Positions 2,564-16,258 of a stretch of DNA of 64,000 nucleotides are shown piece by piece. The stretch comes from a virus. Taxonomy: Duplodnaviria; Caudoviricetes. The notes beneath the pieces are model-generated. The model ran no database searches. It was given only the letters and a program-made list of their open reading frames with translations, and was not told where the DNA came from. Position 1 is the stretch's first letter. Each line of letters opens with the position of its first letter. The position numbers and the translations under genes were made by a program. The stretch spans positions 1 to 64,000 of IMG/VR virus record IMGVR_UViG_3300048670_001593; one strand, 5' to 3'.

Positions 2564-3259
2564 ATGAGAACACAAGACCTATTCCGACAAAACATAGCCT
2601 ATCACGACCAGCTGAATCCTGATGTCTGGTCAGGCCATCAGATCAGAACAGAAGTCAGATATCGCCTGCTGCAGATAGCTCAGGTGTTTATGGAATATCT
2701 GGAAGTGCCGGACTTTAAATTGCTGGATGTTGTGCTCAGAGGCAGCCTGGCCAATTACAATTACACCCCATACAGTGACTTTGATCTGCACCTGATCACC
2801 AATTACGCAGATTTAAATTGTGACATTGCCGAAGCATTCTATCGTGCCAAAAAGACCCTGTGGAACAGTGAGCACGACATTCTGATACGTGGCCACGAAG
2901 TTGAAGTCTATGTGGAAGATGTTCAGGCGCAGGCCATCAGTGAAGGCACCTACAGTCTACTGGACGATCAGTGGCTGCGTCGGCCTACCCACCGACCACC
3001 TCGCATACGCAGTCGAGCAGTGGTGGCCAAGGCACAGGATCTCATGAGACAAATTGATCAGGAAATTGCCGATGGTAATGTGTCAGATCTGGAAAGACTT
3101 CAGTTAAAAATTAAAAATATGCGTAAAAGTGGTCTGACACGAGGCGGGGAATTCAGCACTGAAAATCTGGCATTTAAAATACTACGCAACCAGGGCTACA
3201 TTGACCGTCTGTATCAGGCACAAGCCCAAGCTCAGGATCAGAATCTCAGTCTGCCATGA
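2564..3259 (+). CDS. Pol-beta-superfamily nucleotidyltransferase
   Basis: GS..(x)..SDFDLH (hG[GS]x9-13DhD) motif plus a third acidic strand 'HEVEVYVED'. Confidence 0.75.
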   Translation: MRTQDLFRQNIAYHDQLNPDVWSGHQIRTEVRYRLLQIAQVFMEYLEVPDFKLLDVVLRGSLANYNYTPYSDFDLHLITNYADLNCDIAEAFYRAKKTLWNSEHDILIRGHEVEVYVEDVQAQAISEGTYSLLDDQWLRRPTHRPPRIRSRAVVAKAQDLMRQIDQEIADGNVSDLERLQLKIKNMRKSGLTRGGEFSTENLAFKILRNQGYIDRLYQAQAQAQDQNLSLP

Positions 3260-3328
3260 GTATTGACAGGAACCACCCATCTCAAATGACAACTCCGGAA
3301 CTTATCACTGAAAGAGAGAACAATTGAC

Positions 3329-4228
3329 ATGCGCATCTGGGAATTTTTAATCGAGCAGACACTCACAGAAGGCGCCACAGACATATTGTATCACTACGCA
3401 CCTGTGGGAGCTGCCCTGGAGATTCTGAAGTCTGGTGAGTTTGGATTCAGTCTGCTCAAAGGTGCTGATCGCAAAAACATGCCAGAAGGTTATGATTTTT
3501 TCTTCAGCACCACCCGCAGTCGTGTGGGCGATTATCACAGAACCACCGGCAACATTGCGGTGATGTTTGTGCTGGATGGTCGGGCCATAGCGCAGCGTTA
3601 TCGAGTGGTGCCTGTGGACTACTGGGAACAGACCTGGTTGGACACCCACGGTCACCGCACCCGAGAAAGCGAAGACCGCATACTCAGTCGCGAGCCCACC
3701 ATGAGCATTGGCTATGCCAGAGAAATACACATCTTGGTACAAGATTACCATAACGAAAATCACACCCCCGCACGTATCCGAACCTTGATCGATCTGGCCA
3801 ACCAACGAGGTATCCCACACTGGACTTATCTCAACCCCACTGCCTGGAGACTACAAGATCGTCGCCGTGCTCTGACGCCCGAACACGAACAGGCATATTT
3901 CCAGGGTCAACTACCACCAGAAAAGGACTACACTGGCACACAGTGGGAACCCACCGACTATGTCAGACCCTGGATAGAACTACTGGACTTTGATACTGAT
4001 CAGCGCAGTCAACTGGGCAACCGAGCACAGTATCTGTTGCGTCAATTGAACTATGGAACCCATCGAGGCGATGATCATGGTCTGTCATCAGATCTGAGCA
4101 ATTCCGGCAAACCCGGCAGCACAGGGCGTGAAAGTGTGGTCAGACTGGTGAAGTTTATGCGTGCCCGGGGCATGAGTATTCCAGACTTTGTGGAATATCT
4201 GCGCCAGAAATGGGAAAGATCAACTTAA
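3329..4228 (+). CDS. putative ADP-ribosyltransferase-fold protein with internal-protein-like N-terminus
   Basis: LYHY ... FFSTTRS ... ESEDRI fits the H/R-S-ExE ART layout; the N-terminus is MRIWEFLIE..LTE. Confidence 0.5.
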   Translation: MRIWEFLIEQTLTEGATDILYHYAPVGAALEILKSGEFGFSLLKGADRKNMPEGYDFFFSTTRSRVGDYHRTTGNIAVMFVLDGRAIAQRYRVVPVDYWEQTWLDTHGHRTRESEDRILSREPTMSIGYAREIHILVQDYHNENHTPARIRTLIDLANQRGIPHWTYLNPTAWRLQDRRRALTPEHEQAYFQGQLPPEKDYTGTQWEPTDYVRPWIELLDFDTDQRSQLGNRAQYLLRQLNYGTHRGDDHGLSSDLSNSGKPGSTGRESVVRLVKFMRARGMSIPDFVEYLRQKWERST

Positions 4229-4242
4229 CAAGGGGAAACATA

Positions 4243-4647
4243 ATGTTTAGCAAGAAAATAATTTGTTTGACGTTGGTTATGAGCTCGGTATTAACTTCGC
4301 TCTCAGCCACTGCTGCAGATGCACCGCCATACACAGTGACAGACGGCTATAAGGTGGATGCTGCTACCATGACAGGTTTCAGAGTCTGGCGCGAAGCCAA
4401 CTGTGCAGCTTGCCACGGGGCAGATCAACAGGGGCAAGTGGGCCCCAGTCTGATTGACAGTCTTAAGGTTCTAAGCAAGGCAGAATTTGTTAATACTGTG
4501 ACCAATGGTAGGTTGGCTCAGGGCATGCCTGCTTGGAACACCAATAAGCGAGTCATGGACAACATAGACAGTCTGTATGCTTATCTCAAAGGTCGTAGCG
4601 ACGGTGCCATAACCCGCACCAAACCCGAATTAATGCAACAACAGTAG
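4243..4647 (+). CDS. periplasmic cytochrome c, XoxG-like (partner of XoxF)
   Basis: RBS AGGGGA at 4231 supports the ATG at 4243. Signal peptide, CAACH haem motif, Met ligand in 'GMPAW'. 'YKVDAATM.GFR.W..' and 'LYAYLKGRSDG' resemble, from memory, the cytochrome encoded beside xoxF5 in Burkholderiales. Confidence 0.8.
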   Translation: MFSKKIICLTLVMSSVLTSLSATAADAPPYTVTDGYKVDAATMTGFRVWREANCAACHGADQQGQVGPSLIDSLKVLSKAEFVNTVTNGRLAQGMPAWNTNKRVMDNIDSLYAYLKGRSDGAITRTKPELMQQQ

Positions 4648-4664
4648 AAATTCAGGACAGGACT

Positions 4665-4707
4665 ATTGCTGCTACACTATTGATCTTGATGTAAGTGTAG
4701 CAGCAAT
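4665..4707. terminator. probable bidirectional terminator hairpin
   Basis: Perfect 14-bp inverted repeat attgctgctacact / agtgtagcagcaat between convergent genes. Confidence 0.7.
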
Positions 4708-4714
4708 TTCTATA

Positions 4715-5176
4715 CTAAGTTTTTTGTTTTTTGCTGGCAGCTACTGCCCAGTTACCGCGCAGGGCAAAATACAATCCACCGGCCCATAAACTGAAATGCA
4801 GATAATCAGTCAGAATAAAGTTGATCAAACTTTGGGGTTTAATCACAGTCCAGATCACTCCAGTGGCAATACAACACATGACAATGCCACTGAACCGAGT
4901 AACCATATCTCCCAGCACAGCCAATATGTGAATGTCTCGGATACGAGGTATGGTAGCCAACCCACCCACCAGTAGCCCGATGCCAGCTGCCAGTTCCCCG
5001 TAGCTGACAAACCACCACACCAGAGGCGGTAGGCCAAATGCTGCGCCCATGGCAGGGTTAAAGGGCATTTTAGACAATGCCTGACCTATAAACACCAGAG
5101 ACAATGGTATTCTAAGCAGAAGATGACTCAAACCCAGATCTGGCAATCGATGCCAATAATTTTCTAGTTTGGACAT
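4715..5176 (-). CDS. DoxX-family membrane protein
   Basis: Four hydrophobic segments; 'LLLRIPLS.VF....SK' and 'ELAAGIGLLVG' pattern. Confidence 0.7.
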   Translation of the reverse strand: MSKLENYWHRLPDLGLSHLLLRIPLSLVFIGQALSKMPFNPAMGAAFGLPPLVWWFVSYGELAAGIGLLVGGLATIPRIRDIHILAVLGDMVTRFSGIVMCCIATGVIWTVIKPQSLINFILTDYLHFSLWAGGLYFALRGNWAVAASKKQKT

Positions 5177-5183
5177 GATGATT

Positions 5184-5483
5184 TTACTTTAATGTGGCAA
5201 TATAAGCAGCTAGGTTGGCCATGTCTGCAGTGGAAAGTTGACCAGCTTGGGCCCACATCAGGGCGCTTTGTGGTCCACGTTGCTCTTTATTCTTGTAAGC
5301 TGTAAGCTTCTGCACAATCGCTTCAGGCTTTTGGCCCTGCAATTTGGGTCCTATCATGCCCTGTCCCTGTGCACCGTGACAGGCAGCACACACCGCAAAC
5401 TTGGTTTTTCCAGCAGCAACGTCTGCAGCCTGACCGAATACAGGTAGACCACACAATACCGCAGTTAGAATCATTTTTTTCAT
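5184..5483 (-). CDS. single-domain class I cytochrome c (c553/c4-like)
   Basis: RBS CAGGAG supports the ATG at 5483. Signal peptide, 'GKTKFAVCAACHG', 'GPKLQGQ', Met ligand in 'LMWAQA'. Confidence 0.9.
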   Translation of the reverse strand: MKKMILTAVLCGLPVFGQAADVAAGKTKFAVCAACHGAQGQGMIGPKLQGQKPEAIVQKLTAYKNKEQRGPQSALMWAQAGQLSTADMANLAAYIATLK

Positions 5484-5496
5484 GGAAAGGCTCCTG

Positions 5497-5652
5497 TTAA
5501 AATATAACATATTTAGTGGCAGCCACTGTGACAACAATAAAAATTGTCGCGAGGCTCAACGCTGCACCTGCCAGTGGCAGTATAAAATACAGATGGCTTG
5601 GGTGGAAATTATTGACCGGTAGCCAACGATTGGGCAATGTCTGTGATTTCAT
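5497..5652 (-). CDS. 51-aa membrane protein (not in ORF track)
   Basis: MKSQTLPNRWLPVNNFHPSHLYFILPLAGAALSLATIFIVVTVAATKYVIF. RBS AAGGA upstream; its TAA abuts the RBS of the cytochrome c gene. Confidence 0.6.
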   Translation of the reverse strand: MKSQTLPNRWLPVNNFHPSHLYFILPLAGAALSLATIFIVVTVAATKYVIF

Positions 5653-5676
5653 AATAGTCCTTGAATGGTTATTGAT

Positions 5677-5715
5677 AAAAAAATAAAGATAGGCTGGAAA
5701 TACTCCAGCCTATCT
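5677..5715 (-). terminator. Rho-independent terminator of xoxF
   Basis: 12-bp stem agataggctgga / tccagcctatct with a 5-nt loop, followed on the minus strand by TTATTTTTTT. Confidence 0.8.
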
Positions 5716-5741
5716 GACTACATTACATCAACTGCTGTTGC

Positions 5742-7553
5742 TTAATTGCTCAGTGCAAACACCATCAGGGTGCCACCCAGATCGCCGTACCGGGCGAGTT
5801 CCTTGTAGCCACCCACAGCGCCCAGACCGTCGCTGTCCTTCTCCAGGCCAGCAGCCATGCCGATACCGGCCCAGCCACCGATGCCGGTCAGAACGCCGAC
5901 GTACTGCTTGCCTTGGAATTCCCAGCTGTGAACGTTACCGATCACGCCCGACGGGAGCTTCGGCGAGGTCCAGACAACCTTACCAGCCTTGATGTCAACA
6001 GCCTTCAGACGGGCGTCCAGCGTGCCGTAGAAAGCCAGACCCGAAGCGGTGGTCAGAGCGCCCGACCAAACCGAGAACTTCTCGGGGATCGACCAAACGA
6101 TCTTGCCCTTGATCGGATCCCAACCGATGAAGTTGCCCATACCGCCGTGGCTGTTCGGAGCCGGGAACATGGCCAGGGTTGCGCCAACGTACGGTTGACC
6201 AGCGGTGTACTCGACACGGAACGGCTCGTAGTCCATACACACGTGGTTGGTCGGGACCAGGAACAGACCCGAGATGGGATCGTAAGCCGCCGGCTGTTGA
6301 TCCTTGGTACCCAGAGCTGCTGGGCAGATGCCCTTGGAGTTGACGTCTTCACCGTTCTGGTGGGTCGAGTACTTGGCTACCACTTGCGGGCGACCAGTCT
6401 TCATGTCCACGTGGGTGGCCCAGTTCACGGCCGGATCGAACTTCTCAGCAACCAGCAGTTCGCCGGTCTTGCGATCCAGGGTGTAGCCGAAGCCGTTACG
6501 GTCGAAGTGAGCCAGCATCTTGCGCTCTTTGCCGTTCTTGTCCTTGCCTTCGAACAGCGGCACTTCGTTGATGCCGTCAAAGTCCCACTCGTCGTGCGGG
6601 GTCATTTGGTAGACCCAGTTGACCTTACCGCTGTCAACGTCACGCGACCACAGGCTCATCGACCACTTGTTGTCGCCCGGGCGTTGCTTCGGGTTCCAGG
6701 TCGACGGGTTGCCGTTGCCGTAGAACATTGCGTTCAGTTCCGGATCGTACGAGTACCAGCCCCAGGTGGTGCCGCCGCCGATCTTCCACTGATCGCCCTG
6801 CCAGGTCTTCAGCGAGCTGTCCTTGCCCACCGGGGCCATCCGGCCGTCGGTCCAGGTCATGGTGGTGTTGGGGTCCATCAGCATGTCGCTGTCCGGACCC
6901 ATGGAGTAACCCTTCCATGCCAGCTTGCCGTCCTTGAGATTGTAGGCAGCAACCCAACCGCGAACGCCGAATTCACCACCGGAGATACCGGTGAAGACCT
7001 TGTCCTTGAAGACGTGGGGGGCGTTGGTGTTGGTTTGGCCCAACTTGGGATCGCCGTTCTTGACTGACCAGACGCGCTTACCGGTCTTGGCATCCAGAGC
7101 CACCAGGGTGGTGTCAGCCTGTTGCAACAGGACCTTGCCGTCGCCGTAGGCCAGGCCACGGTTAACGGTGTCACAGCACATGACCGGAATCACGCTGGGG
7201 TCTTGCTTGGGCTCGTACTTCCACTTGATGGTTTGGTCAGCCAGGTTGATGGCGAAAACCTTGTTCGGGAAAGCCGAGTGAACGTACAGGGTGTCGCCAA
7301 TGACCAGCGGGCCGCCTTCGTGGCCGCGCAGAACGCCTGTGGAGAACGTCCAAGCCACTTGCAGCCGGTTCACGTTGCTCTTGTTGATCTGGGTCAACCG
7401 AGTGTGGCGGGTGTTCGAGAAATCGTGGGCGGGAGCTGCCCAGTTACCCGGAACATCCATGAGCTTGGCCAGATCTGCATTGGCCAGGCTGGCTGTGGGT
7501 GCTGCCATTGCTGCTGCTACTGCAATACTGCTAAACAATTTCTTCAATAACAT
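5742..7553 (-). CDS. xoxF: lanthanide-dependent PQQ methanol dehydrogenase, XoxF (probably clade 5, Burkholderiales-like)
   Basis: Signal peptide; vicinal 'MCCDTVNRG' disulfide; metal ligands E (GGEFG) and N (GNP); 'EWDFDG' with the extra Ln-binding Asp (MxaF has WDYAG); full-length 603 aa; RBS AAGGAG. Confidence 0.95.
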
Positions 7554-7651
7554 TTACATCTCCTTGTGATGATAAAGTGCCGGTTGTCAGTGTGACCACA
7601 CTGGCCGCGGACCACAAGTTATTTGTACAGGGTTTGTCCTATACAAAATTA

Positions 7652-7679
7652 ATTATATACAGTCTAAATGATAGGTCAA
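7652..7679 (-). promoter_or_regulatory. sigma70 promoter for xoxF
   Basis: Minus strand TTGACC-16-TATAAT, about 100 nt upstream of the xoxF ATG. Confidence 0.6.
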
Positions 7680-7777
7680 GAAATTTTTTCAGATTTTTTA
7701 CAAAAAAACTCACACATAGGCCAACCTTGCCAGGCACAGTGAGTCAGACTAAATATACTATATTCTGAGTGAACATC

Positions 7778-9445
7778 ATGCGAGCACGACAATTTATCCC
7801 AAAAACCCCCATCTTAGAACAGCAACTGGATGAGATCAACATGAGTCCTGGAGCACTCAAACAGTTTGCTCAGACTCATCCCCTGGCACAGCAGATCACA
7901 GCTGGCTTTGAACTGGAACTGTGTTTTACTGACATCGGTCGACCCCAGGGCTATGGCGGCATAGAAGATGAGAGAATCAACAGATACTGGGATCTGGAAA
8001 CCATTCAGGATTTGTTTAGTGAATATACCAGTCGTCGTGACCGTGGTTATAGTCGTATGGAAGAGGATTACCAGACGGCCTATTTTGAAAAGGTCGCAGA
8101 TAATGTTGATCCCGACGAGGTAGAAAGGCTGGCCAGAGCTAAAGCCCGAGACGACATTGATTCTGACACAGTGGACGAACGTGTGCAGGCAGTGTTGGCT
8201 GACAACCCCGACGCTGATGAGGATGAGGTCAGAAAACAAGTCATAGAAGAAATAGTGGATGCCAACTGGTCAGATCATGAATACGAAGCCCACGAAGAAG
8301 CGGAAGAAGACGTCCGCAATGAGTTGGACTACGATTTTGGCGAGTGGCTCTGGGCCAATCACAATTATCTGAGCGATGTGGCGGCCGAGTATGATCTGGG
8401 AGTGCCGTTTGAAGATGAAGATTCATATGATGATACGCCCTATGATACTGATCAGATGGAGGACGCAGCACGTCGCCTCAGACAGTATACCGACATGCGG
8501 GTCAGAGTCAGCTCCAGTTACCACAGCGTGCAGCGCCTGCCGGGTCTGATAATCATTGAACCCGATGGTAGCATTGAACCCGATGACAGTGATGAGGCTG
8601 CTGCTGAAATCATTACTCCACCACTGCCACTGGCAGAAACCCTGGAGTTGTTTGCCAAAGTTCGAGACTGGGCTGAAGAATACGGCGGCTATACCAACAG
8701 CAGCACCGGACTACACTTCAACATCAGCAGCCCCGACATGAGTCAGTTTGACTATGTCAAAATGGTGTTGCTGCTGGGAGACCAGCATCTGTTGGGTTTG
8801 TTTGATCGTGAATACAACAGCTATTGTAAAAGTGCCATCGGCAAAATCATATCAGAGATGCGACGCCAACACTACCAGGGAGAGGGCCAAATGGATCGAG
8901 TGCTGGCTGAACGTGTGATGGAAGTGTTGAAATCTCACACCTATCGTCTGGCACAGGAATTCATCCAAGATGCCATCAAGAGCTGGGGCAATACATTCAC
9001 CACAGACAAATACACCAGTCTGAACTGGAAGGGCGATTACATGGAAGTCCGTGCTCTGGGTGGTCCCAAGATCATGACCGATCCCCAGCTGACTCTGAAT
9101 GCCATCTATCGTGTGATCAGAGTCTGGGCCAGTGCCGTGGATCCCAAACTGGATCGTGAAGAATATCTGAAAAAACTCTATGCCATGACACAGCGTGGTG
9201 TGGAAAACACTCAAGTGGGCAACAAGATATCAGTGAGTCAGATAATTTCACGTTACATGACCGGAGACCGCAGCAATCTGGACCTGCTGGTGGCCGAACT
9301 TCGCAAGCAGATCGCACAGAGCGCACAACAACGTGATCTGGCCAAAGTGCGTGGCCAACACAAACCTCTGCTGCCCGAACCCAACCCACAGATGAATCTG
9401 GATCTTCGTGATCGTCCTGGCCCTGTCGCCAATCAGGAGACCTGA
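7778..9445 (+). CDS. putative amidoligase (COOH-NH2 ligase type 2) with acidic insert
   Basis: GFELE, PDGSI, EIITPPL and TNSSTGLHFNIS motifs. N-terminus MRARQF..ILE; TAAATA at 7750. Confidence 0.75.
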   Translation: MRARQFIPKTPILEQQLDEINMSPGALKQFAQTHPLAQQITAGFELELCFTDIGRPQGYGGIEDERINRYWDLETIQDLFSEYTSRRDRGYSRMEEDYQTAYFEKVADNVDPDEVERLARAKARDDIDSDTVDERVQAVLADNPDADEDEVRKQVIEEIVDANWSDHEYEAHEEAEEDVRNELDYDFGEWLWANHNYLSDVAAEYDLGVPFEDEDSYDDTPYDTDQMEDAARRLRQYTDMRVRVSSSYHSVQRLPGLIIIEPDGSIEPDDSDEAAAEIITPPLPLAETLELFAKVRDWAEEYGGYTNSSTGLHFNISSPDMSQFDYVKMVLLLGDQHLLGLFDREYNSYCKSAIGKIISEMRRQHYQGEGQMDRVLAERVMEVLKSHTYRLAQEFIQDAIKSWGNTFTTDKYTSLNWKGDYMEVRALGGPKIMTDPQLTLNAIYRVIRVWASAVDPKLDREEYLKKLYAMTQRGVENTQVGNKISVSQIISRYMTGDRSNLDLLVAELRKQIAQSAQQRDLAKVRGQHKPLLPEPNPQMNLDLRDRPGPVANQET

Positions 9446-9448
9446 TCC

Positions 9449-9985
9449 TTGAGAGCCCGTGACCTATTGGAAAAGTGGAGCAAAAAATACAAGAGCTCAA
9501 TTGACTGCAGTCACCCCCAGGGTTTCAGCCAGCGTGCTCATTGTCAGGGACGCAAAAAGCACAACGAAGATGTTGATGCCGGCACACAGCCCACACTCAT
9601 GGATGCTCTCAGAGACTTCTTTCCTGTGGCCATGCAGCATCTGGATCTGGACCATCTGCCCAGAATCACCTTTGTCCAGGACGTCGCAGGCCATCGCGCC
9701 CCCACCTTTGGCAAGTTTATGAATGCTGAAAACACCATCTTTGTGGACATTGAGAATCGTCATCCCAATGACATCCTGCGCACTCTGGCACACGAACTTG
9801 TGCACTATCGTCAACAGTTAGATGGCCAACTTGATGACCGCAGCGGAGAAACTGGCAGTCCTATAGAAAATGAGGCCAATGCCACTGCTGGCGTAATCAT
9901 GAGAGAATTTAATAAAAAATATCCTGAATATCTAGACATGCAACCAGTTGTCTTGGGTGAAAAAAACAACATTGACAAAATATGA
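9449..9985 (+). CDS. zincin-like metallopeptidase (HExxH) preceded by a small Cys/His module
   Basis: TTG start with AGGAG upstream; 'TLAHELVHYRQ ... ENEANA'; N-terminus MRARDLLE. Confidence 0.7.
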   Translation: MRARDLLEKWSKKYKSSIDCSHPQGFSQRAHCQGRKKHNEDVDAGTQPTLMDALRDFFPVAMQHLDLDHLPRITFVQDVAGHRAPTFGKFMNAENTIFVDIENRHPNDILRTLAHELVHYRQQLDGQLDDRSGETGSPIENEANATAGVIMREFNKKYPEYLDMQPVVLGEKNNIDKI

Positions 9986-12432
9986 GAGCCAAAGACTTTA
10001 TCAACGAGAAACGAAAGCGTAAGAAGAGTCGTCGAACTCCCACACTTTACTACGGCTATCCCTGGGGATACTGGGGTGGTAGCGGAGACAGCAGTGACGG
10101 TGGCGGGGGCGATGGTGGCGGTGCTGCAGAAAACATAGCCCCAATGGGCCCAGCGTTGCCCATGCCCAGTCAGTATCCTCGTAAAACACCACAGTGGCCC
10201 AGTCCAGAAGAACGCCGTAAGAAAAAGGTATCAGAAGCAGGTGAAACTACCCCAGCCCAGCAGTGGATCAGTAAAATTTATGATGAATTTCACGAACATC
10301 CATTCAATCCCCGATACCGAGTCATGACCTGGGGGTCAGGTGACGATCAGCAACTGGCCATATTTGAACTGGCGCCAGTGTTTGGTAAACCCACCACGGT
10401 GGACATCAAATGGTTTCAAGCATATCCACAGCGTCAGGGCATTGGCACCAGAGCCATGCAACAGTTACAACAACTGGCACTGGAACATGGCATCACACTC
10501 ACCATATATCCCTGGAACCGTGGCGAAGTCAGTCAGAGTAAATTGACCAAAATCTATCGTGGCATGGGATTCCGTCCCACAGTTCGGGGTGCCAAAGACA
10601 TGTCATGGCAACCACAACAACAAAGTGTGGCGGAAGGCGTTCCCCAACCTGGTAAATCATCTGGCAAACCAATATCTTGGATTGATCCTACCAAAGTTGT
10701 AACAAAATATCTAACCTTACCAGAAATATTAAAAACAGTATCAGGAATTCCATACTATACCGATGTTGTAAAAGATAGAGATAGTAAAGATTTTTCCTGG
10801 GGGGTCACAAAAAAAGTTTTAGAATATGCGAGAGAATTAATCATACGCCCTGATGCCTATAAAAACTGGCCTCCCATAATAGTCTTAGATGGCGAACTAC
10901 AAGACGGCGCACATCGTATATCCACGATATACTTGATGCAACAACGAGTTCAGCCAAATAATCCAATTTGGAAAACTGCTAAATTAAAGGTAGAATTTGG
11001 ATCAGCAAATAATGTAAAGCAAAGTGTGGCGGAAGGTCAGTTAAATGAATCGCTATCATCAATGGTTGCGCAAGATCAGGCCGAGCGTGACGAATATAAA
11101 CAATTTGTAAAATCACAGGCTGGAGGTGATTGGTCAAAAGGCGCTAAACTATACGCGCAACTTAAAAAAAGACCCAGTGATGATATATTTGGTGATAAAC
11201 AAAGATTAAATCAATTTATGAAAATAAAATTTGATTTCGATAAGTTTACTGATGACGATTGGAACAATTATTGGTTGTTGGCACAACATTGCGATATGAA
11301 TCGCAATTTCCAAAAACAAGCACTGTCGATTATTAAAAAATATCAAGGTCCAGATAGCTCACACTACAAGTATCTGTATGATAGAATTAGTTGCGCCATT
11401 ACCGGCACACAAAAATATGGAACGCAATCCCTGTGTGATAAAGACCATCAAGAGCTGTCAGAAACATTTGACCAACCCTATCCTTTGACCTGGGAACACA
11501 GTGAATACGGTGATATGGATGCCCTGGCCACTCTGGACGATGGCACCCATCTGACTGTGATGTTCAGTAAACAAGACGATGATAGTTGGGGAGTGTCCTT
11601 TTACAGAAACGACAGTCAGCGCACCACAGGCCTGGGAGATGCTCACAGAGTGTTTGCCACAGTGTTGGCTGCCATTGCCGAGTTTGTCAAAAAACAACAA
11701 CCGCGGGCATTAACCTTTTCGGCTGTCAAAGTTGAAGAAGACGACGACAGTATACAAGACCAACTCAGTAGGATCAAACTCTATGACCGATTGGTGCAGC
11801 GATACGCACAATCTGTTGGTTATGGTGTCACCAGAGTGGACAAAACTCACTTGGTGGCTTATAAATTGACCCGATTGAAACAAGAGCTGTCTGAACAGCA
11901 ACACCAAGATTACATGGCGGGACATTGTCACGTCATGGCAATAGCATTAAAGTTATTACATCCCGATTGGCGAATCCGAGCGCACATAGGGTGGGACGAT
12001 GACGAAGCTGAAGATCATGAGTATCGAGTTGATCATGTGTATATCGTCGCTCCTGATGGATCAGCATACGACTGTCGTGGCAGGTTTGACAACGAGGACC
12101 AGTTAGTGGGTCCCGACACCACGGGAGGCATTGACACACAGTATGTGGACCTGGAAGTCACAGACATCAAACAGTTGATCTCACGTGGCGAATTAAAACA
12201 GTTTACCAAACAGGATATAGTTCATGCTACGAAATTTGCCAAACAGATCGTAAACGAAAACTTTGCAGATGGTCGTAATCCACAAGACAAAGGTGACAGC
12301 AAACGATACGGTGTTCCCACCCGAGCCAGTGTCAGCACATTACGCAAAGTGGCCAAACAAGGTGGACGTAAAGGTCAACTGGCACACTGGATGGCCAATA
12401 TGAAAGCAGGTAGGGCCAAGGCAAAGAAATGA
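9982..12432 (+). CDS. 816-aa multi-domain polyprotein: GNAT, ParB-like, DUF6624-like, unknown, papain-like, small basic module
   Basis: 'QRQGIGTRAM' (GNAT acetyl-CoA motif); 'PPIIVLDG..DGAHR' (ParB); 'DQAER..WLLAQH.D..YLYDR..QKYGTQ' (DUF6624-like); 'GHCHVMA..DHV..YD' (Cys-His-Asp). Junctions are VSE, VAE, VAE/LNE, LSE, LSE, VNE. Confidence 0.75.
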   Translation: MRAKDFINEKRKRKKSRRTPTLYYGYPWGYWGGSGDSSDGGGGDGGGAAENIAPMGPALPMPSQYPRKTPQWPSPEERRKKKVSEAGETTPAQQWISKIYDEFHEHPFNPRYRVMTWGSGDDQQLAIFELAPVFGKPTTVDIKWFQAYPQRQGIGTRAMQQLQQLALEHGITLTIYPWNRGEVSQSKLTKIYRGMGFRPTVRGAKDMSWQPQQQSVAEGVPQPGKSSGKPISWIDPTKVVTKYLTLPEILKTVSGIPYYTDVVKDRDSKDFSWGVTKKVLEYARELIIRPDAYKNWPPIIVLDGELQDGAHRISTIYLMQQRVQPNNPIWKTAKLKVEFGSANNVKQSVAEGQLNESLSSMVAQDQAERDEYKQFVKSQAGGDWSKGAKLYAQLKKRPSDDIFGDKQRLNQFMKIKFDFDKFTDDDWNNYWLLAQHCDMNRNFQKQALSIIKKYQGPDSSHYKYLYDRISCAITGTQKYGTQSLCDKDHQELSETFDQPYPLTWEHSEYGDMDALATLDDGTHLTVMFSKQDDDSWGVSFYRNDSQRTTGLGDAHRVFATVLAAIAEFVKKQQPRALTFSAVKVEEDDDSIQDQLSRIKLYDRLVQRYAQSVGYGVTRVDKTHLVAYKLTRLKQELSEQQHQDYMAGHCHVMAIALKLLHPDWRIRAHIGWDDDEAEDHEYRVDHVYIVAPDGSAYDCRGRFDNEDQLVGPDTTGGIDTQYVDLEVTDIKQLISRGELKQFTKQDIVHATKFAKQIVNENFADGRNPQDKGDSKRYGVPTRASVSTLRKVAKQGGRKGQLAHWMANMKAGRAKAKK
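10621..10637 (+). repeat. 17-bp direct repeat, copy 1 (caaagtgtggcggaagg; encodes QSVAEG)
   Basis: Identical to 11020-11036. Confidence 0.9.
11020..11036 (+). repeat. 17-bp direct repeat, copy 2
   Basis: Identical to 10621-10637; the two copies bracket the ParB-like module. Confidence 0.9.
11449..11463 (+). repeat. 15-bp direct repeat, copy 1 (caagagctgtcagaa; encodes QELSE)
   Basis: 14/15 identical to 11881-11895. Confidence 0.85.
11881..11895 (+). repeat. 15-bp direct repeat, copy 2 (caagagctgtctgaa)
   Basis: The two copies bracket the module at 11464-11880. Confidence 0.85.
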
Positions 12433-13265
12433 GAGCCAGAGAATTTGTCAGAGAAAGTGGTCGACGTCTGGCCAGCCAGGGAATAGAAGTTTCCCGAGTC
12501 TACCCAGAAGATTTTAAAAAGGCCAAAGCTGCTCTGGACCCCCTGCTAAAGCAAGCAGGCATCACAGCCGGGTGGACAGCCGGTGGAGCAGGCAGTTTCG
12601 ATCCCGAACATCCCTACGGTGGTGGTGGTCGTGCCAGCAGTGGTGATATTGATATTATGATTGATCCTGATGATCTCCAAGCAGCCTTTCCTGTGGATCT
12701 GGAGCAGTATAATCAGGCAACCCAGGCCCTGGGCGCCCGAGCATTTGCCAATGTCATGGCCAGTCCCGAAAGACAGGAAAAATTGGCACTGACCGCCAGC
12801 AAGTGGGCCCTGGCACAATACATGACAAAAAATGGTTATCCCACCGACCCCGGCACGCTGACAGTGGAGTATGGTGCTGATGGTAAGATCTTTAGTGTGG
12901 ATTTGATATTACGCCCCCGGACAGCCTGGGAATTACACGCTCATGACTTCAGTCAGGATCCCGAAATGCGCGGTGGTCAATTGTTCACTGACGTCTACCC
13001 CACACTGGTGCGACTGGCCAGAAAAACCACTCAGATTGATCCCAGAACTGGTGAAGAAAAAGGCAGTCTGCAATACAGTCCTGACCGAGGGCTGGTGGAC
13101 CGAGCCACTGGTCAAGTGGTGGCCATCAATAAAAATGACATCGCAAAAATTCTACTGGGGCCCAAGGCCACTGCCCGAGACCTCAGCAGCATTTCTGGCA
13201 TTCGTCGAGCACTCAGTCAGGATCCCGAAAAGTTGGCCCAGGTTTTTCCTGACAGCACAAATTGA
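12429..13265 (+). CDS. Pol-beta-like nucleotidyltransferase
   Basis: 'GGAGS ... SSGDIDIMID' and a later 'SVDL' strand; N-terminus MRAREFVRE. Confidence 0.6.
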   Translation: MRAREFVRESGRRLASQGIEVSRVYPEDFKKAKAALDPLLKQAGITAGWTAGGAGSFDPEHPYGGGGRASSGDIDIMIDPDDLQAAFPVDLEQYNQATQALGARAFANVMASPERQEKLALTASKWALAQYMTKNGYPTDPGTLTVEYGADGKIFSVDLILRPRTAWELHAHDFSQDPEMRGGQLFTDVYPTLVRLARKTTQIDPRTGEEKGSLQYSPDRGLVDRATGQVVAINKNDIAKILLGPKATARDLSSISGIRRALSQDPEKLAQVFPDSTN

Positions 13266-13271
13266 TAAATA
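13265..13271 (+). promoter_or_regulatory. probable late promoter core ATAAATA
   Basis: Lies inside a 7-bp inverted repeat (aattgat-aaat-atcaatt), immediately before the 13278 start. Confidence 0.5.
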
Positions 13272-13277
13272 TCAATT

Positions 13278-15125
13278 ATGCTATTACAAGAACTCTTTGC
13301 GCCCAATAAAACTCCACTGAACGAAGGCATTGACCATCCCGAAGATCTGATCATCAGTCAGGGCGCTCAGGGCGCCCAACGTGCTGTGTCAGCCATTGCC
13401 AGGCTGGGTCAGGGTGCCAAAACTGTGAGCATCAAATGGGATGGTTTCCCAGCAGTGGTGTTTGGTCGAGACACTGGTGGTGAGTTGGTGTTCATGGACA
13501 AACACATGTATGACAAAGTTGCCAAGGGTCGTCTGGAATTCACAACCATCCGAGATTATGATCAGGCCCGTGGTGCTGATCGTTCGGATCTGTGGGAAAA
13601 AGAAAGTGTGCTCCGAGCTGCACTGGAGAGAATTGTGCCAGCAGTTAAAAATCAATACTGGATGGGTGATCTGATGTGGTCCGGCACTCCAGCCACATCT
13701 GATGGATTTTTCGTATTCAAACCCAACACTGTGGAATATCGAGTCAGCATTGTGGGGGATCTGGGCCAGGACATTTCACGCAGCGTGGGTGGAATCGCTG
13801 TGCATACATTTATACCCGAACTGGGTGCGGCCGATGAACCTCTGACAGGGCTGAAAGGTCTTAAAACTCAGGCGGGCATCACCTTCCTGACCGGAGAAAT
13901 GCGAGAGCAGCCCAAAATTCTGGTCAATGCAAACTTTCTGGCCCGCACACAGGGCATTATTGATCAACACCGCCGAGCAGTGGATAAATTCATTGCCGAT
14001 CTCACTGAGATGCGCGGCAAGAGCATCCTGACTGCCATGGGACCGTTCATCACCAGTATGTTGGCGGAGGATGACATTGCCACAGACATTGTGCCCAGAT
14101 TCCTGGAGTTTTTAAAATCCCGTCTGAACCCAGCAGCACAGCAAAAATTCCTGGGCTCAAACAACGACGGCTGGTTATACCAGGCCGATGGCGGAGCACC
14201 GGGTTTGCTGGGTATCTGGAGCATGTGGGCTGCTGTCACGGATCTGAAATTGCATGTCAAAGAACAGATTGACACACAAATGCAGGGTAGTGAGGTGGTG
14301 GCTGTGATTGACGGCGAGCCCAGACACGAAGGCTATGTGTTCGGTGGCGGGGAAAGCAAACTCAAACTGGTGGACCGATTGGGATTCAGTCGCGCCAACT
14401 TTGCCAAACACCGAGTGCCAGATGAAGAGATTGCTCGAAAGAAGGACATGCCAGTGGCAGTGTTCTGTTTCGGTCGTATGAACCCACCCACGCTGGGTCA
14501 CAGATTGGTCATGGCCAAAACTGTGGAACTGGGCGGAGACAATGCCCACATCTTCCTGAGCAACACACAAAACACCGATACCGATCCCCTGGCACCTGCT
14601 GTCAAAGCAGCATTTATTAGAAAAATATATCCCGAACTGGGCCAACACATTGTCGACGAACCTGTGGCCACGCCCATACAAGCAGCCAACTGGTTGTATG
14701 CCCGGGGGTTCAGAAACATGACATTCGTGGCCGGCAGTGACCGATTGGGTTCGGGCGCCGGCAGTATAGAAAAACTGCTGAACAGTTGGAACAGTGGCAT
14801 AGTTCGCACCGCTGATAATATATTTGGGCCTGAAGGTCGTGAACACGTGGTGCTGAATTTTGTCAGCAGTGGATCACGTGATCCTGATGCCACCGACATC
14901 AGTGGTATCAGTGGAACACTGGCTCGCCGATTTGCTGCCGCTGGTGACGAAAAAGCCTTTGAGCGGGCAACCGGAGTAGGAAGCAATATCCAGGTGCAGG
15001 GCCAGACACTGTATCAGGCCACACGTCAGGGCCAGGGGATCGCAGATCGATCTGCGGAACCACAGGTGCAGGAATCAGTTGACTGGCTACGAAAAATAAC
15101 TCAGTGGTCACATAATATTAAATAG
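13278..15125 (+). CDS. fusion of an ATP-dependent ligase-like domain (DUF6267-like) and a HIGH-family cytidylyltransferase-like domain
   Basis: 'HPEDL..SIKWDG' (KxDG) ... 'LKLVDR'; then 'FGRMNPPTLGH' and 'FVAGSDR'; N-terminus MLLQELF..LNE. Confidence 0.7.
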   Translation: MLLQELFAPNKTPLNEGIDHPEDLIISQGAQGAQRAVSAIARLGQGAKTVSIKWDGFPAVVFGRDTGGELVFMDKHMYDKVAKGRLEFTTIRDYDQARGADRSDLWEKESVLRAALERIVPAVKNQYWMGDLMWSGTPATSDGFFVFKPNTVEYRVSIVGDLGQDISRSVGGIAVHTFIPELGAADEPLTGLKGLKTQAGITFLTGEMREQPKILVNANFLARTQGIIDQHRRAVDKFIADLTEMRGKSILTAMGPFITSMLAEDDIATDIVPRFLEFLKSRLNPAAQQKFLGSNNDGWLYQADGGAPGLLGIWSMWAAVTDLKLHVKEQIDTQMQGSEVVAVIDGEPRHEGYVFGGGESKLKLVDRLGFSRANFAKHRVPDEEIARKKDMPVAVFCFGRMNPPTLGHRLVMAKTVELGGDNAHIFLSNTQNTDTDPLAPAVKAAFIRKIYPELGQHIVDEPVATPIQAANWLYARGFRNMTFVAGSDRLGSGAGSIEKLLNSWNSGIVRTADNIFGPEGREHVVLNFVSSGSRDPDATDISGISGTLARRFAAAGDEKAFERATGVGSNIQVQGQTLYQATRQGQGIADRSAEPQVQESVDWLRKITQWSHNIK

Positions 15126-15151
15126 TTGAATAGTTTAAAAGTTAAAAATCA

Positions 15152-16258
15152 ATGAATCAAGTTCCCAGTTGCAGTGCAATCGATACCGGGTTTTTTATCA
15201 CCACCAGTGGCGGAGTAAAAACCTGCTGCAGTGGACAATATGACTTGGGCAGTATACGGACTCAATCAACTGTTGAAATTTTCAATAGTAAAAAATACAT
15301 TGACGTTAGAAATGCATTGGTCAACAATCAGCCCACTGAATATTGTAAACAATGCGATCATCAGGAATCCATTGCTCTGGGGTCCAGCCAAAAAACAATT
15401 TTCAATCAGAGTTTGCCCAGTGTCGGACAGCGAAAAATTAAACAAATTGACATCAGATGGAGCAATTTGTGCAATCTAGCTTGCAGATACTGCAATCCCT
15501 ACGACAGTAGTGAATGGGCCAAGTTGCAATCAATTCCCATCGAATCTCTGAATAGATCTTATATTCAGAGTGTATTCGACACAGTGTCAGAAAATTTGGA
15601 TTCACTTGAAGAAGTCTACTTGTTGGGTGGCGAACCCCTGTTACAAAAACACAACGAAACACTACTTGATCTAATAAGCGGTAAACAAAAAATTTCAGTT
15701 GTGACCAATCTCAGTGTTAATCTTGAAAAAAACAACGTATACCAGAAACTTAAAAAATTTCAAAATATTTCCTGGAGCCTGAGTTTTGAAAATGTTGGTG
15801 ACAAATTCGAATATGTCAGACACGGGGCCAATTGGCAAAAATTTCTCAACAATATCCAGATTCTTAAAGATGATTTTGGCACTGGTAAAATTGATTTTCA
15901 CCCAGTTTACAGCGTTTGGAGTGCGGTTGCATTAGACGAATTTTATGATTTCGCACACACTATTGGCGACTTTAAAATAACCTGGCAACTATGCAATGAT
16001 GAGGTCCAGTCTGGTTATGATATTTTTACTCATAATGAAAAAATAAAATCTGAAGCCATCAGACAGATTGAAAAAACTAATGTGGGATCATCTGCAAATT
16101 TCTTTAGTAAAGTCAAAGACAAACTCCAGACTTCTGAAGGTGTACCTCAGCAGAATCAAAAATTTTTAAATTGGATTGCTGAATCAGAGACACTATTGTC
16201 TCCTAACAAAACGTTTGCCGAGCTCTGGCCCAATTTATACCGATTACTGTCGGAATAA
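15152..16258 (+). CDS. radical SAM protein with N-terminal SPASM/twitch domain
   Basis: CNLACRYC; N-terminal C..CC..CxxC; GGEP; AT-rich. Confidence 0.85.
   Translation: MNQVPSCSAIDTGFFITTSGGVKTCCSGQYDLGSIRTQSTVEIFNSKKYIDVRNALVNNQPTEYCKQCDHQESIALGSSQKTIFNQSLPSVGQRKIKQIDIRWSNLCNLACRYCNPYDSSEWAKLQSIPIESLNRSYIQSVFDTVSENLDSLEEVYLLGGEPLLQKHNETLLDLISGKQKISVVTNLSVNLEKNNVYQKLKKFQNISWSLSFENVGDKFEYVRHGANWQKFLNNIQILKDDFGTGKIDFHPVYSVWSAVALDEFYDFAHTIGDFKITWQLCNDEVQSGYDIFTHNEKIKSEAIRQIEKTNVGSSANFFSKVKDKLQTSEGVPQQNQKFLNWIAESETLLSPNKTFAELWPNLYRLLSE

Follow-up and report, generated by a model that had tools for sequence, protein, structure and literature searches.

The first weapons that a phage uses against host defences are the proteins it injects, and the renewal of this arsenal is poorly understood. 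One route by which such proteins might be exchanged is raised by an open reading frame of 816 aa (9982–12432, + strand) in the window, that is, in the whole stretch of 64,000 nucleotides analysed here (positions 1 to 64,000 of the IMG/VR record IMGVR_UViG_3300048670_001593, Caudoviricetes). The initial annotation, made from the sequence alone, read this frame as a polyprotein with domains joined by protease-site motifs, and proposed that the short DNA repeats encoding these motifs double as recombination handles. Our analysis indicates that the frame belongs to a T4-related jumbo phage and probably encodes an effector polyprotein that is targeted to the capsid and predicted to be cut at its module junctions, where close relatives have exchanged, gained, or lost whole modules. 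The second function assigned to the repeats is supported by breakpoints that fall at them and by conservation at their silent sites; the word "design", which was also used, overstates the case, as most junctions differ in DNA.

The start codon of the frame overlaps the stop codon of the upstream gene (ATGA). The first nine codons encode a capsid-targeting-like leader, MRAKDFINE (9982–10008), which ends in I-N-E and shares its F-I-x-E ending with T4 IPII and IPIII (MRAKDFINE|K in the window versus MKTYQEFIAE|A in both T4 proteins). The window protein thus opens as T4-type internal head proteins do, with some 10 leader residues of which the last three are L/I/V-x-E. Leaders of the same kind start six neighbouring genes (e.g., MRAREFVRE and MRIWEFLIE), and many relatives begin similarly (alignment consensus MRAxEFxxE). 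A basic spacer follows, Gly/Tyr-rich and Pro-rich and ending in KKVSE at junction 1 (10009–10236); homologous spacers occur in relatives, in one complete relative within a polyprotein of 1417 aa. The chain closes with a basic helical peptide of 57 aa plus the stop codon (12259–12432). This peptide is conserved among jumbo phages, with 80–95% identity across dozens of contigs and one copy per complete relative genome, and its AF2 model consists of helices, with confidence falling directly after the junction Glu.

The proposed division of the polyprotein into six modules agrees with homology to within a few residues: in phmmer comparisons with 150 relatives, the best stretches start or stop at about aa 85–90, 212–220, 349–360, 485–493, 633–640, and 756–765. 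The family comprises more than 3,000 cluster representatives, 490 of them with E below 1e-30. The same modules also occur as separate leader-bearing genes in the window and as fused polyproteins, which in relatives reach ~2,500 aa. An artefact of gene fusion or gene calling can be rejected, since the frame is intact and thousands of relatives follow the same module grammar.

Four of the modules had been named in the initial annotation, and the names fared differently. For the first (10237–10635, ending in QQQSVAE at junction 2), a GNAT acetyltransferase remains a plausible label by sequence. Pfam Acetyltransf_1 matches with E 0.01, which is below the curated cut-off, and the peptide QRQGIG corresponds to the R/Q-x-x-G-x-G motif; GNAT families of Pfam match relatives with E down to 3.6e-6, in matches that are unmapped to this module. 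The module is found in at least 24 relatives at varying positions. The second (10636–11034, ending in KQSVAE at junction 3) contains an invariant DGAHR and gave zero Pfam matches, both for the window protein and for five short homologues, and zero PDB profile matches. Its Atlas model shows TM scores of 0.50–0.57 to ParB_N and DndB clusters, a weak structural lead that, together with DGAHR, tentatively suggests a ParB/Srx-like domain. A mini-linker, GQLNE, then leads into an all-helical module that ends in HQELSE at junction 4 (11035–11463) and recurs in at least 30 relatives. The label DUF6624 was dropped here, as no profile match appeared at E up to 1 for the window protein or 0.05 for the five short homologues; there were also zero matches to any other Pfam family or in the PDB profile search, and the Atlas model resembles helical repeats.

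The next module (11464–11895, RTTGLG motif, ending in KQELSE at junction 5), previously listed as unknown, is assigned by sequence to Pfam DUF6934. The profile of this family finds 26 of 65 relatives, with E down to 3e-18, and the window's own copy, weak by itself (E 0.14), aligns with the matching relatives end to end. The AF2 model (pLDDT 86.8) has a GNAT fold, for which Foldseek returns many GNAT enzymes. The module before the basic peptide (11896–12258, ending in QIVNE at junction 6) is defined by alignment and an AF2 model, and carries the invariant motifs GHCH, DH, and DCRG. In the model, GHCH opens helix 11–21, and DH and DC lie on strands. These features may point to a papain-like domain, as first proposed. 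The best structural matches (SseI, Z 4.9; protein-glutaminase, Z 3.8) lie within the noise range, and Foldseek against the PDB gave no usable match, with nothing below E 0.1.

The module ends are VSE, VAE, VAE plus LNE, LSE, LSE, and VNE, the last five as the initial annotation gave them, and all modules of the frame terminate in hydrophobic-x-Glu. Of 201 module starts examined in 150 representative distant relatives, 200 have Glu at P1 (background 6%) and 191 have V, L, I, or M at P3 (background 20%), with P2 and P4 variable; among the fetched loci, 69 of 71 junctions show the hydrophobic-x-Glu pattern. The T4 protease gp21 cleaves after L/I-x-E, and positions 8 and 10 of the capsid-targeting sequence (CTS) control processing (PMC9026906). 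By sequence, the pattern at the junctions is this T4 protease motif. The junctions sit in low-confidence linkers of the predicted models. Hydrophobic-x-Glu also occurs at five further sites inside modules, which means that more than the motif is needed to specify a cut. The P1 and P3 pattern, together with the head genes and capsid propeptide of complete relatives described below, gives strong indirect support: the junctions are probably head-maturation protease sites at which the chain is predicted to be cut.

At the DNA level, the identical 17-mer CAAAGTGTGGCGGAAGG reported for two junctions is exact at 10621–10637 and 11020–11036. Its 13-nt core occurs in 2 copies in the window versus 0.10 expected, and 0 of 100 shuffles reached 2. 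A genome-wide count had been suggested initially; over the 78.7-kb record, a third copy of the 17-mer is absent. A chance origin of the 17-mers was rejected by the shuffle test and by a relative with a single copy. Similarly, the 15-mers that encode QELSE at 11449–11463 and 11881–11895 are identical at 14 of 15 positions. Shared junction DNA is not universal, because many junction peptides (SIENE, EELPE, QIVNE, and others) are encoded by different DNA.

A protease of the predicted type is found in the lineage. The source of the window belongs to the T4-related jumbo phages: its DNA polymerase shares 62–72% identity with those of complete relatives of 364–400 kb. These complete relatives encode Peptidase_S77, the gp21-family prohead protease (E 1e-24 to 1e-27), and Gp23, the T4-type major capsid protein (E about 1e-98), in the T4 order of head genes (portal, acidic protein, protease, scaffold, capsid). 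Their capsid propeptide terminates in YLAE|T or YLKE|N, that is, in L-x-E. In total, the S77 protease together with scaffold and capsid genes of T4 type is present in four of five relative records searched, among them the three complete genomes. The 78.7-kb record of the window itself, a 22% complete fragment, yielded none of these genes, a negative that does not extend to the whole phage. Cultured phages gave zero blastn matches to 7700–15200, and the sole tblastn match among them was the DUF6934 module, which occurs in KVP40-type T4-like vibriophages behind a CTS-like leader. The T4 late-promoter core TATAAATA is unenriched, with a single copy in the window (2508) versus 1.3 expected.

We compared the window with five close relatives (L091, L004, L003, L005, and L092) that are 95–97% identical in shared DNA. 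These six loci represent six architectures. The alignment of related loci had been suggested at the outset, with fixed domain order as the outcome that would speak against shuffling. Domain order is instead highly variable, with many combinations among 150 relatives, and in the five close relatives the breakpoints of gain, loss, and replacement fall at the junction repeats, almost all of them within 16 nt of a junction. The first 17-mer (10621–10637) is the left edge of a segment that L091 and L004 lack and for which L092 and L005 carry a replacement. L091 retains one 17-mer and misses exactly the ParB-like module; it is also without the Cys/His module, with a breakpoint at 11894. The homology of L003 begins at the second 17-mer (from position 11018). 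The deletion in L004 has its right edge at the first QELSE-coding repeat (11449–11463), with the crossover inside the 5-codon motif. In L005, a 25-mer containing the 17-mer is located at a different junction, and a breakpoint at 11907 lies, as does that of L091, at the second QELSE-coding repeat (11881–11895). L092 carries a new module flanked by a near-exact junction duplication (23/25). Both L004 and L005 contain an extra module of ~115 aa directly after junction 1. What looked like a duplicated stretch in the L091 GNAT region was rejected, as the scaffold carries a run of N there. By these sequence comparisons, the few codons of each junction are also the sites at which modules are gained, lost, and exchanged through recombination in frame.

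Codon use at the junctions was compared at 67 GVAE sites in 30 loci. The 12-mer GGTGTGGCGGAA encodes 42% of these sites versus 0.6% expected. GCG accounts for 78% of the Ala codons (background 7%), GTG for 70% of Val (background 28%), GGT for 85% of Gly (background 38%), and CAA for 45 of 46 Gln codons. As a control, the invariant motif NFADG, which lies in the most conserved module, draws on every Ala and Gly codon, and the bias is absent. A 14-mer occurs in 3–4 copies in three of five relative records searched, always on the coding strand, and in 0 copies in the other two; the reversed control gave 0–1. By sequence comparison, junction DNA is nearly identical at silent sites across phages and junctions. 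It is conserved beyond the needs of the peptide, which fits a role at the DNA level.

These observations suggest the following scheme. The leader of nine residues would direct the precursor to the prohead and into its scaffolding core, like the T4 capsid-targeting sequence. A gp21-family (Peptidase_S77) prohead protease would cleave after Glu at every hydrophobic-x-Glu junction and release a GNAT enzyme, the ParB-like, helical, second GNAT-fold (DUF6934), and Cys/His domains, and the basic peptide. The released modules would remain with the packaged DNA and enter the host together with it. An extension of this scheme, possible in our judgement but rather improbable, is that the junction core GGTGTGGCGGAAGG is a selected, dedicated recombination signal and the locus an in-frame "effector integron". 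The signal might act as a hotspot of the Chi type or be recognized by a nuclease or recombinase that the phage encodes, and one short element would be read three ways, as DNA exchange site, as codons, and as protease site. If so, jumbo T4-like phages would trade injected anti-host domains across loci and phages at a high rate.

An alternative explanation would leave the junctions as protease sites only, with shared DNA and breakpoints as by-products of recent copying and selection. Any recombination would then move modules, and selection would retain those products that are in frame and have intact domains and cuttable linkers; selection alone would likewise favour breakpoints at domain borders. 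The variable P2 and P4 and the many differing junction peptides are as expected under protein-level selection, and the window's exact 17-mers could be the footprint of a single recent insertion. Moreover, the insertion point in L092 lies five codons beyond the predicted cleavage site, so crossover is not tied to the motif itself. We nevertheless consider this explanation unlikely: the silent sites of GVAE are strongly biased to one 12-mer at 15 different loci, including the otherwise rare GCG, the modules themselves have diverged to 40–60% protein identity, and the invariant peptide of the most conserved module lacks this bias. Several events also bear the direct-repeat signature of homology-guided exchange. 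The codon bias could alternatively serve RNA or translation, for example as a rare-codon pause for domain folding, with recombination incidental. GCG, rare in these genes (7%) and dominant at the junctions (78%), would agree with a pause, but a pause would not need fixed Gly, Val, and Gln codons too, and it leaves the breakpoints and direct-repeat footprints unexplained; we regard this possibility as highly improbable.

It also seems very unlikely that the product is an uncut "polyvalent protein" delivered whole or, if processed, is cut by the upstream metallopeptidase. Polyvalent proteins with GNAT, ParB-like, and metallopeptidase domains have been described, and autoproteolysis has been proposed for them (PMC5512222). 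The gene directly upstream (9449–9985) does contain an HExxH motif and gives weak peptidase matches; it is separate in the window and fused in frame with the polyprotein in five relatives (L004, L091, L037, L024, and L006). Against this assignment, near-invariant P1 Glu with hydrophobic P3 is the documented gp21-type signature, the junction motif matches the maturation site of the capsid protein in relatives, and junctions are present in many relatives without any peptidase module. The peptidase module has a CTS-like leader and is flanked by the identical junction motif, and therefore looks like cargo rather than the processing enzyme.

The polyprotein that we favour, cut by the head protease and shuffled at its junctions, resembles several known systems in part. 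Like T4 IPI-III and Alt, it has a short N-terminal leader ending in hydrophobic-x-Glu, occurs in a lineage with a gp21-family protease and T4-type head genes, and belongs to loci that are highly variable among relatives and encode basic or enzymatic cargo thought to be injected with DNA. T4 cargo consists of single proteins, each with its own leader, whereas here up to six modules stand behind one leader and relatives carry many more, with internal sites and a conserved basic peptide that always ends the chain. The jumbo phages phiKZ, 201phi2-1, and SPN3US likewise combine diverged gp21 homologues with a large internal protein cargo, and their protease recognizes a motif of three residues, S/A-x-E, and cleaves numerous head proteins behind its Glu. 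Those substrates, however, are paralogues with structural or ejection roles from which propeptides are removed, not shuffled chains of unrelated enzyme modules.

A likeness to polyvalent proteins had been noted initially and is borne out: many unrelated effector-type domains in one polypeptide (six modules here), mosaic relatives, and predicted delivery with DNA. GNAT, ParB-like, peptidase, deaminase, NTase, and Zeta-like domains are common to both. For polyvalent proteins, processing was proposed to occur via embedded metallopeptidases (Iyer et al. 2017, PMC5512222), and that work describes no conserved inter-domain motif or DNA-level junction, whereas all junctions here are T4-protease-type sites with conserved codons. 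The shuffling idea itself has ancestry in published motif-mediated shuffling of T-even phages, namely in PeSL cassettes (PMC2839356, PMC4122927), IP-locus elements (Repoila 1994), and tail-fibre adhesins of T4-type phages (Tetart 1998). As here, related phages exchange modules by recombining at short conserved sequences that have a function of their own. Most of the published elements are intergenic and regulatory and move whole genes, and the adhesin motifs exchange segments within one protein family; at this locus, by contrast, a coding protease-site linker joins unrelated domains in frame. Integron cassette arrays offer an analogy only: they share ordered exchangeable cargo, short conserved junctions, and one upstream expression signal, but here there is neither integrase nor attC, the units are domains in one frame, and the junction is translated. 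In the literature, a prior description of a module system based on sites for both protease and recombination was not found.

It seems that the phage has its injected proteins arranged as a plug-in system. The locus suggests a simple and general route of renewal, in which unrelated domains behind one leader are exchanged in frame at predicted head-protease sites, and one short sequence is apparently selected at both the protein and the DNA level. The combination of leader, hydrophobic-x-Glu junctions, and basic tail also provides a search rule for virion-packaged effectors in uncultured jumbo phages, and the locus offers a natural model of how T4-type capsids could be loaded with several proteins at once. 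Among the modules of the family are many candidates for enzymes of anti-defence or host takeover. The effector repertoire of relatives comprises deaminase, Pol-beta NTase, Zeta toxin, HD, NUDIX, amidoligase, and sigma-70 region 4 domains; DUF6934 is the commonest module and is often found in tandem. In the window, the two middle modules, ParB-like and helical (10636–11463), each have a G+C content of 37%, compared with 47–54% in the others.

The open reading frame at 9982–12432 (+ strand) codes for 816 residues without interruption. Its start ATG overlaps the stop codon of the upstream gene in an ATGA sequence, and the following gene starts in the same manner at 12429. The repeats that the initial annotation had described at the module borders were confirmed: the 17-mer is exact at both sites (10621–10637 and 11020–11036, + strand), and the 15-mers encoding QELSE (11449 and 11881, + strand) are identical at 14 of 15 positions. 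The 13-nt core of the 17-mer occurs twice compared to 0.10 expected occurrences in a shuffle test, none of the shuffled sequences contained two copies, and the entire 78.7 kb record contains no further copy. The G+C content of the two middle modules is 37%, that of the remaining modules 47–54%, and that of the window overall 46%.

To collect relatives of the polyprotein we used phmmer against 1.84 billion cluster representatives. This search returned 3,014 relatives, including 490 with E values below 1e-30, and the starts and stops of the matched stretches coincide with the previously proposed module boundaries. When the query was divided into seven parts and these were mapped onto the 150 top-scoring relatives among the 3,014, the modules proved to combine freely. 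Among these 150, the GNAT module precedes DUF6934 in some proteins and follows it in others, DUF6934 forms tandem arrays of up to four copies, the ParB-like, helical, and Cys/His modules each occur in many contexts, and the basic peptide is nearly always the final module. Since each complete genome contains one copy of the basic peptide, in open frames ranging from 246 to 1,416 residues, this peptide marks one orthologous, highly variable locus. The 57-residue peptide itself (window 12259–12432; relatives' loci L024–L082) is 80–95% identical across dozens of jumbo-phage contigs that differ in their other modules, and far outranks the rest of the locus in conservation. It may be an internal peptide that associates with the DNA.

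Alignment of 201 module starts showed Glu at P1 in 200 cases (background 6%) and V, L, I, or M at P3 in 191 (background 20%), while Gln at P5 (35%), Gly or Ser at P4 (42%), and Ala or Thr at P2 (52%) are less strictly kept. In the fetched loci P1 is Glu at 69 of 71 junctions. Such a pattern, in which one position is invariant, a second is limited to one residue class, and the others are loose, typifies protease recognition sites, and the motif equals L/I-x-E, after which T4 gp21 cuts (PMC9026906). The window protein contains 13 hydrophobic-x-Glu sites, eight of which mark the end of the leader and the junctions, whereas five lie inside modules; in structure models, confidence falls immediately past the junction Glu.

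The window is the initial 64 kb of a 78.7 kb viral record with an estimated completeness of 22%. Its family B DNA polymerase is of T4 type and shares 62–72% identity with the polymerases of complete viral genomes of 364–400 kb, one of which has terminal repeats. These complete relatives code for a gp21-family prohead protease (Peptidase_S77, exceeding the Pfam cut-off) and a Gp23-type major capsid protein (E about 1e-98), with the head genes in T4 order: portal, acidic protein, protease, scaffold, and capsid. Since their capsid propeptides end in YLAE/T or YLKE/N, this lineage retains the T4 cleavage rule.

The polyprotein begins with MRAKDFINE/K, comparable to MKTYQEFIAE/A at the start of both T4 IPII and IPIII. 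Within the ten residues of the T4 capsid-targeting sequence, targeting depends on positions 4 and 7 and processing on positions 8 and 10 (PMC9026906). Six genes near the polyprotein gene open with a leader of the same style. We infer that the leader targets the polyprotein, which would then be cut by the prohead protease and injected with the DNA. In two close relatives (L004 and L091) and several distant ones, genes that stand alone in the window, the upstream HExxH peptidase gene among them, are continuous in frame with the polyprotein, so that gene boundaries and internal junctions interconvert.

Several features of this region may be recorded here. Seven consecutive + strand genes at 2564–15125 share one leader type (MRTQDLF, MRIWEFLIE, MRARQF, MRARDLLE, MRAKDFINE, MRAREFVRE, and MLLQELF). 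Relatives encode the products of these genes, including the Pol-beta-like NTase, the HExxH peptidase, and the amidoligase, as in-frame parts of single polyproteins of ~1,400–2,500 residues. The 615-residue protein at 13278–15125 has a CTS-like start, DUF6267 with a KxDG ligase-type motif, and a cytidylyltransferase-like domain with a TLGH motif. Behind the polyprotein leader, 10009–10150 encodes a basic run followed by a Gly/Tyr/Trp-rich and Gly/Asp-rich stretch; because a homologous stretch sits in the middle of the 1,417-residue polyprotein of a complete relative (G002, locus L037), this part acts like a separate module.

Five close relatives with 95–97% nucleotide identity to the window in shared segments (L091, L004, L092, L005, and L003) all differ in architecture from the window and from one another. 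In line with the recombination handles proposed in the initial annotation, nearly all breakpoints fall at most 16 nt from a junction, in intervals that make up ~9% of the gene. L091 lacks exactly the ParB-like module and retains a single 17-mer (reading QSVAE/GQLNE); its Cys/His module is missing as well, between breakpoints at 11894 and 12256. In L004 GNAT is joined to DUF6934 by a crossover within the five-codon motif, giving QQQSLSE. L092 and L005 carry another module of 62 residues between 10640 and 11455, and the extra module at the last junction of L092 is flanked by a near-exact (23/25) junction duplication. The homology of L003 is confined to 11018 onward, which is the second 17-mer; in L005 a 25-mer holding the 17-mer lies after DUF6934 instead; and L004 and L005 contain an additional module directly after junction 1. 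The GNAT region of L091 looks duplicated (~2830–2930), but this was rejected as an assembly artefact produced by a run of N in the public scaffold.

Conservation at the junctions extends to silent sites. Among 67 non-redundant GVAE junctions from 30 loci, Ala is encoded by GCG in 78% (background 7%), Val by GTG in 70% (28%), Gly by GGT in 85% (38%), and the preceding Gln by CAA in 45 of 46 cases (68%). A single 12-mer, spread over 15 loci, accounts for 42% of GVAE sites compared to 0.6% expected. This codon bias is specific to junctions, since every Ala and Gly codon is found in use at NFADG, an invariant motif in the most conserved module. The main alternative is that junctions are protease sites alone, with the DNA pattern as a by-product. 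This explanation accounts for less of the GVAE bias relative to the NFADG control, and for less of the direct-repeat footprints. In the preferred reading, the junctions would stay identical in DNA because this DNA promotes exchange. At the comparative level, a leader-driven polyprotein with putative protease sites whose codons act as exchange points is well supported.

Polyvalent proteins are known, with embedded metallopeptidases proposed for processing (PMC5512222), T4 capsid targeting and the variability of IP loci are well established, and modular shuffling through short functional elements has been described for T4-type phages (PMC2839356). Our literature search found no account of leader-driven, protease-site-delimited polyproteins with junction codons as exchange points.

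A junction 14-mer (≤1 mismatch) occurs in 3–4 copies in three of five relative records searched and in zero copies in the other two. The copies always lie on the coding strand, some of them outside the polyprotein locus, and the reversed 14-mer gave 0–1 copies. In a complete relative genome, four copies within 750 nt (G001:C1:217386–218131, minus strand), ~67 kb from the basic-peptide locus, suggest a second polyprotein-type gene with the same junction DNA.

The identities of individual modules were revised in part. The segment 11464–11895, initially labeled unknown, is Pfam DUF6934; in structure, its model (pLDDT 86.8) resembles numerous GNAT enzymes, and the module contains an R-x-x-G-x-G loop. 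The Pfam match of the GNAT module in the window is weak (E 0.01); GNAT families match relatives with E values down to 3.6e-6, at positions not mapped to this module. The putative ParB-like module has an invariant DGAHR motif and weak structural leads. In the Cys/His module GHCH, DH, and DCRG are invariant in the alignment, and the Cys is located at a helix start, but the top structural matches, papain-like deamidases and glutaminases, are within the noise range. Profile searches gave no support for DUF6624 similarity. Extra modules in relatives include deaminase, Pol-beta NTase, Zeta toxin, HD, NUDIX, amidoligase, and sigma-70 region 4. DUF6934 proteins also occur in cultured KVP40-type T4-like vibriophages (Vibrio phage KVP40 gene KVP40.0058, L001:3989–4870; phage VH7D, L002:2677–3597), where a leader ending in LCE or LTE directly precedes the module and LCE/AFDRP or LTE/AFDRP joins it to a CTS-like leader or another domain.
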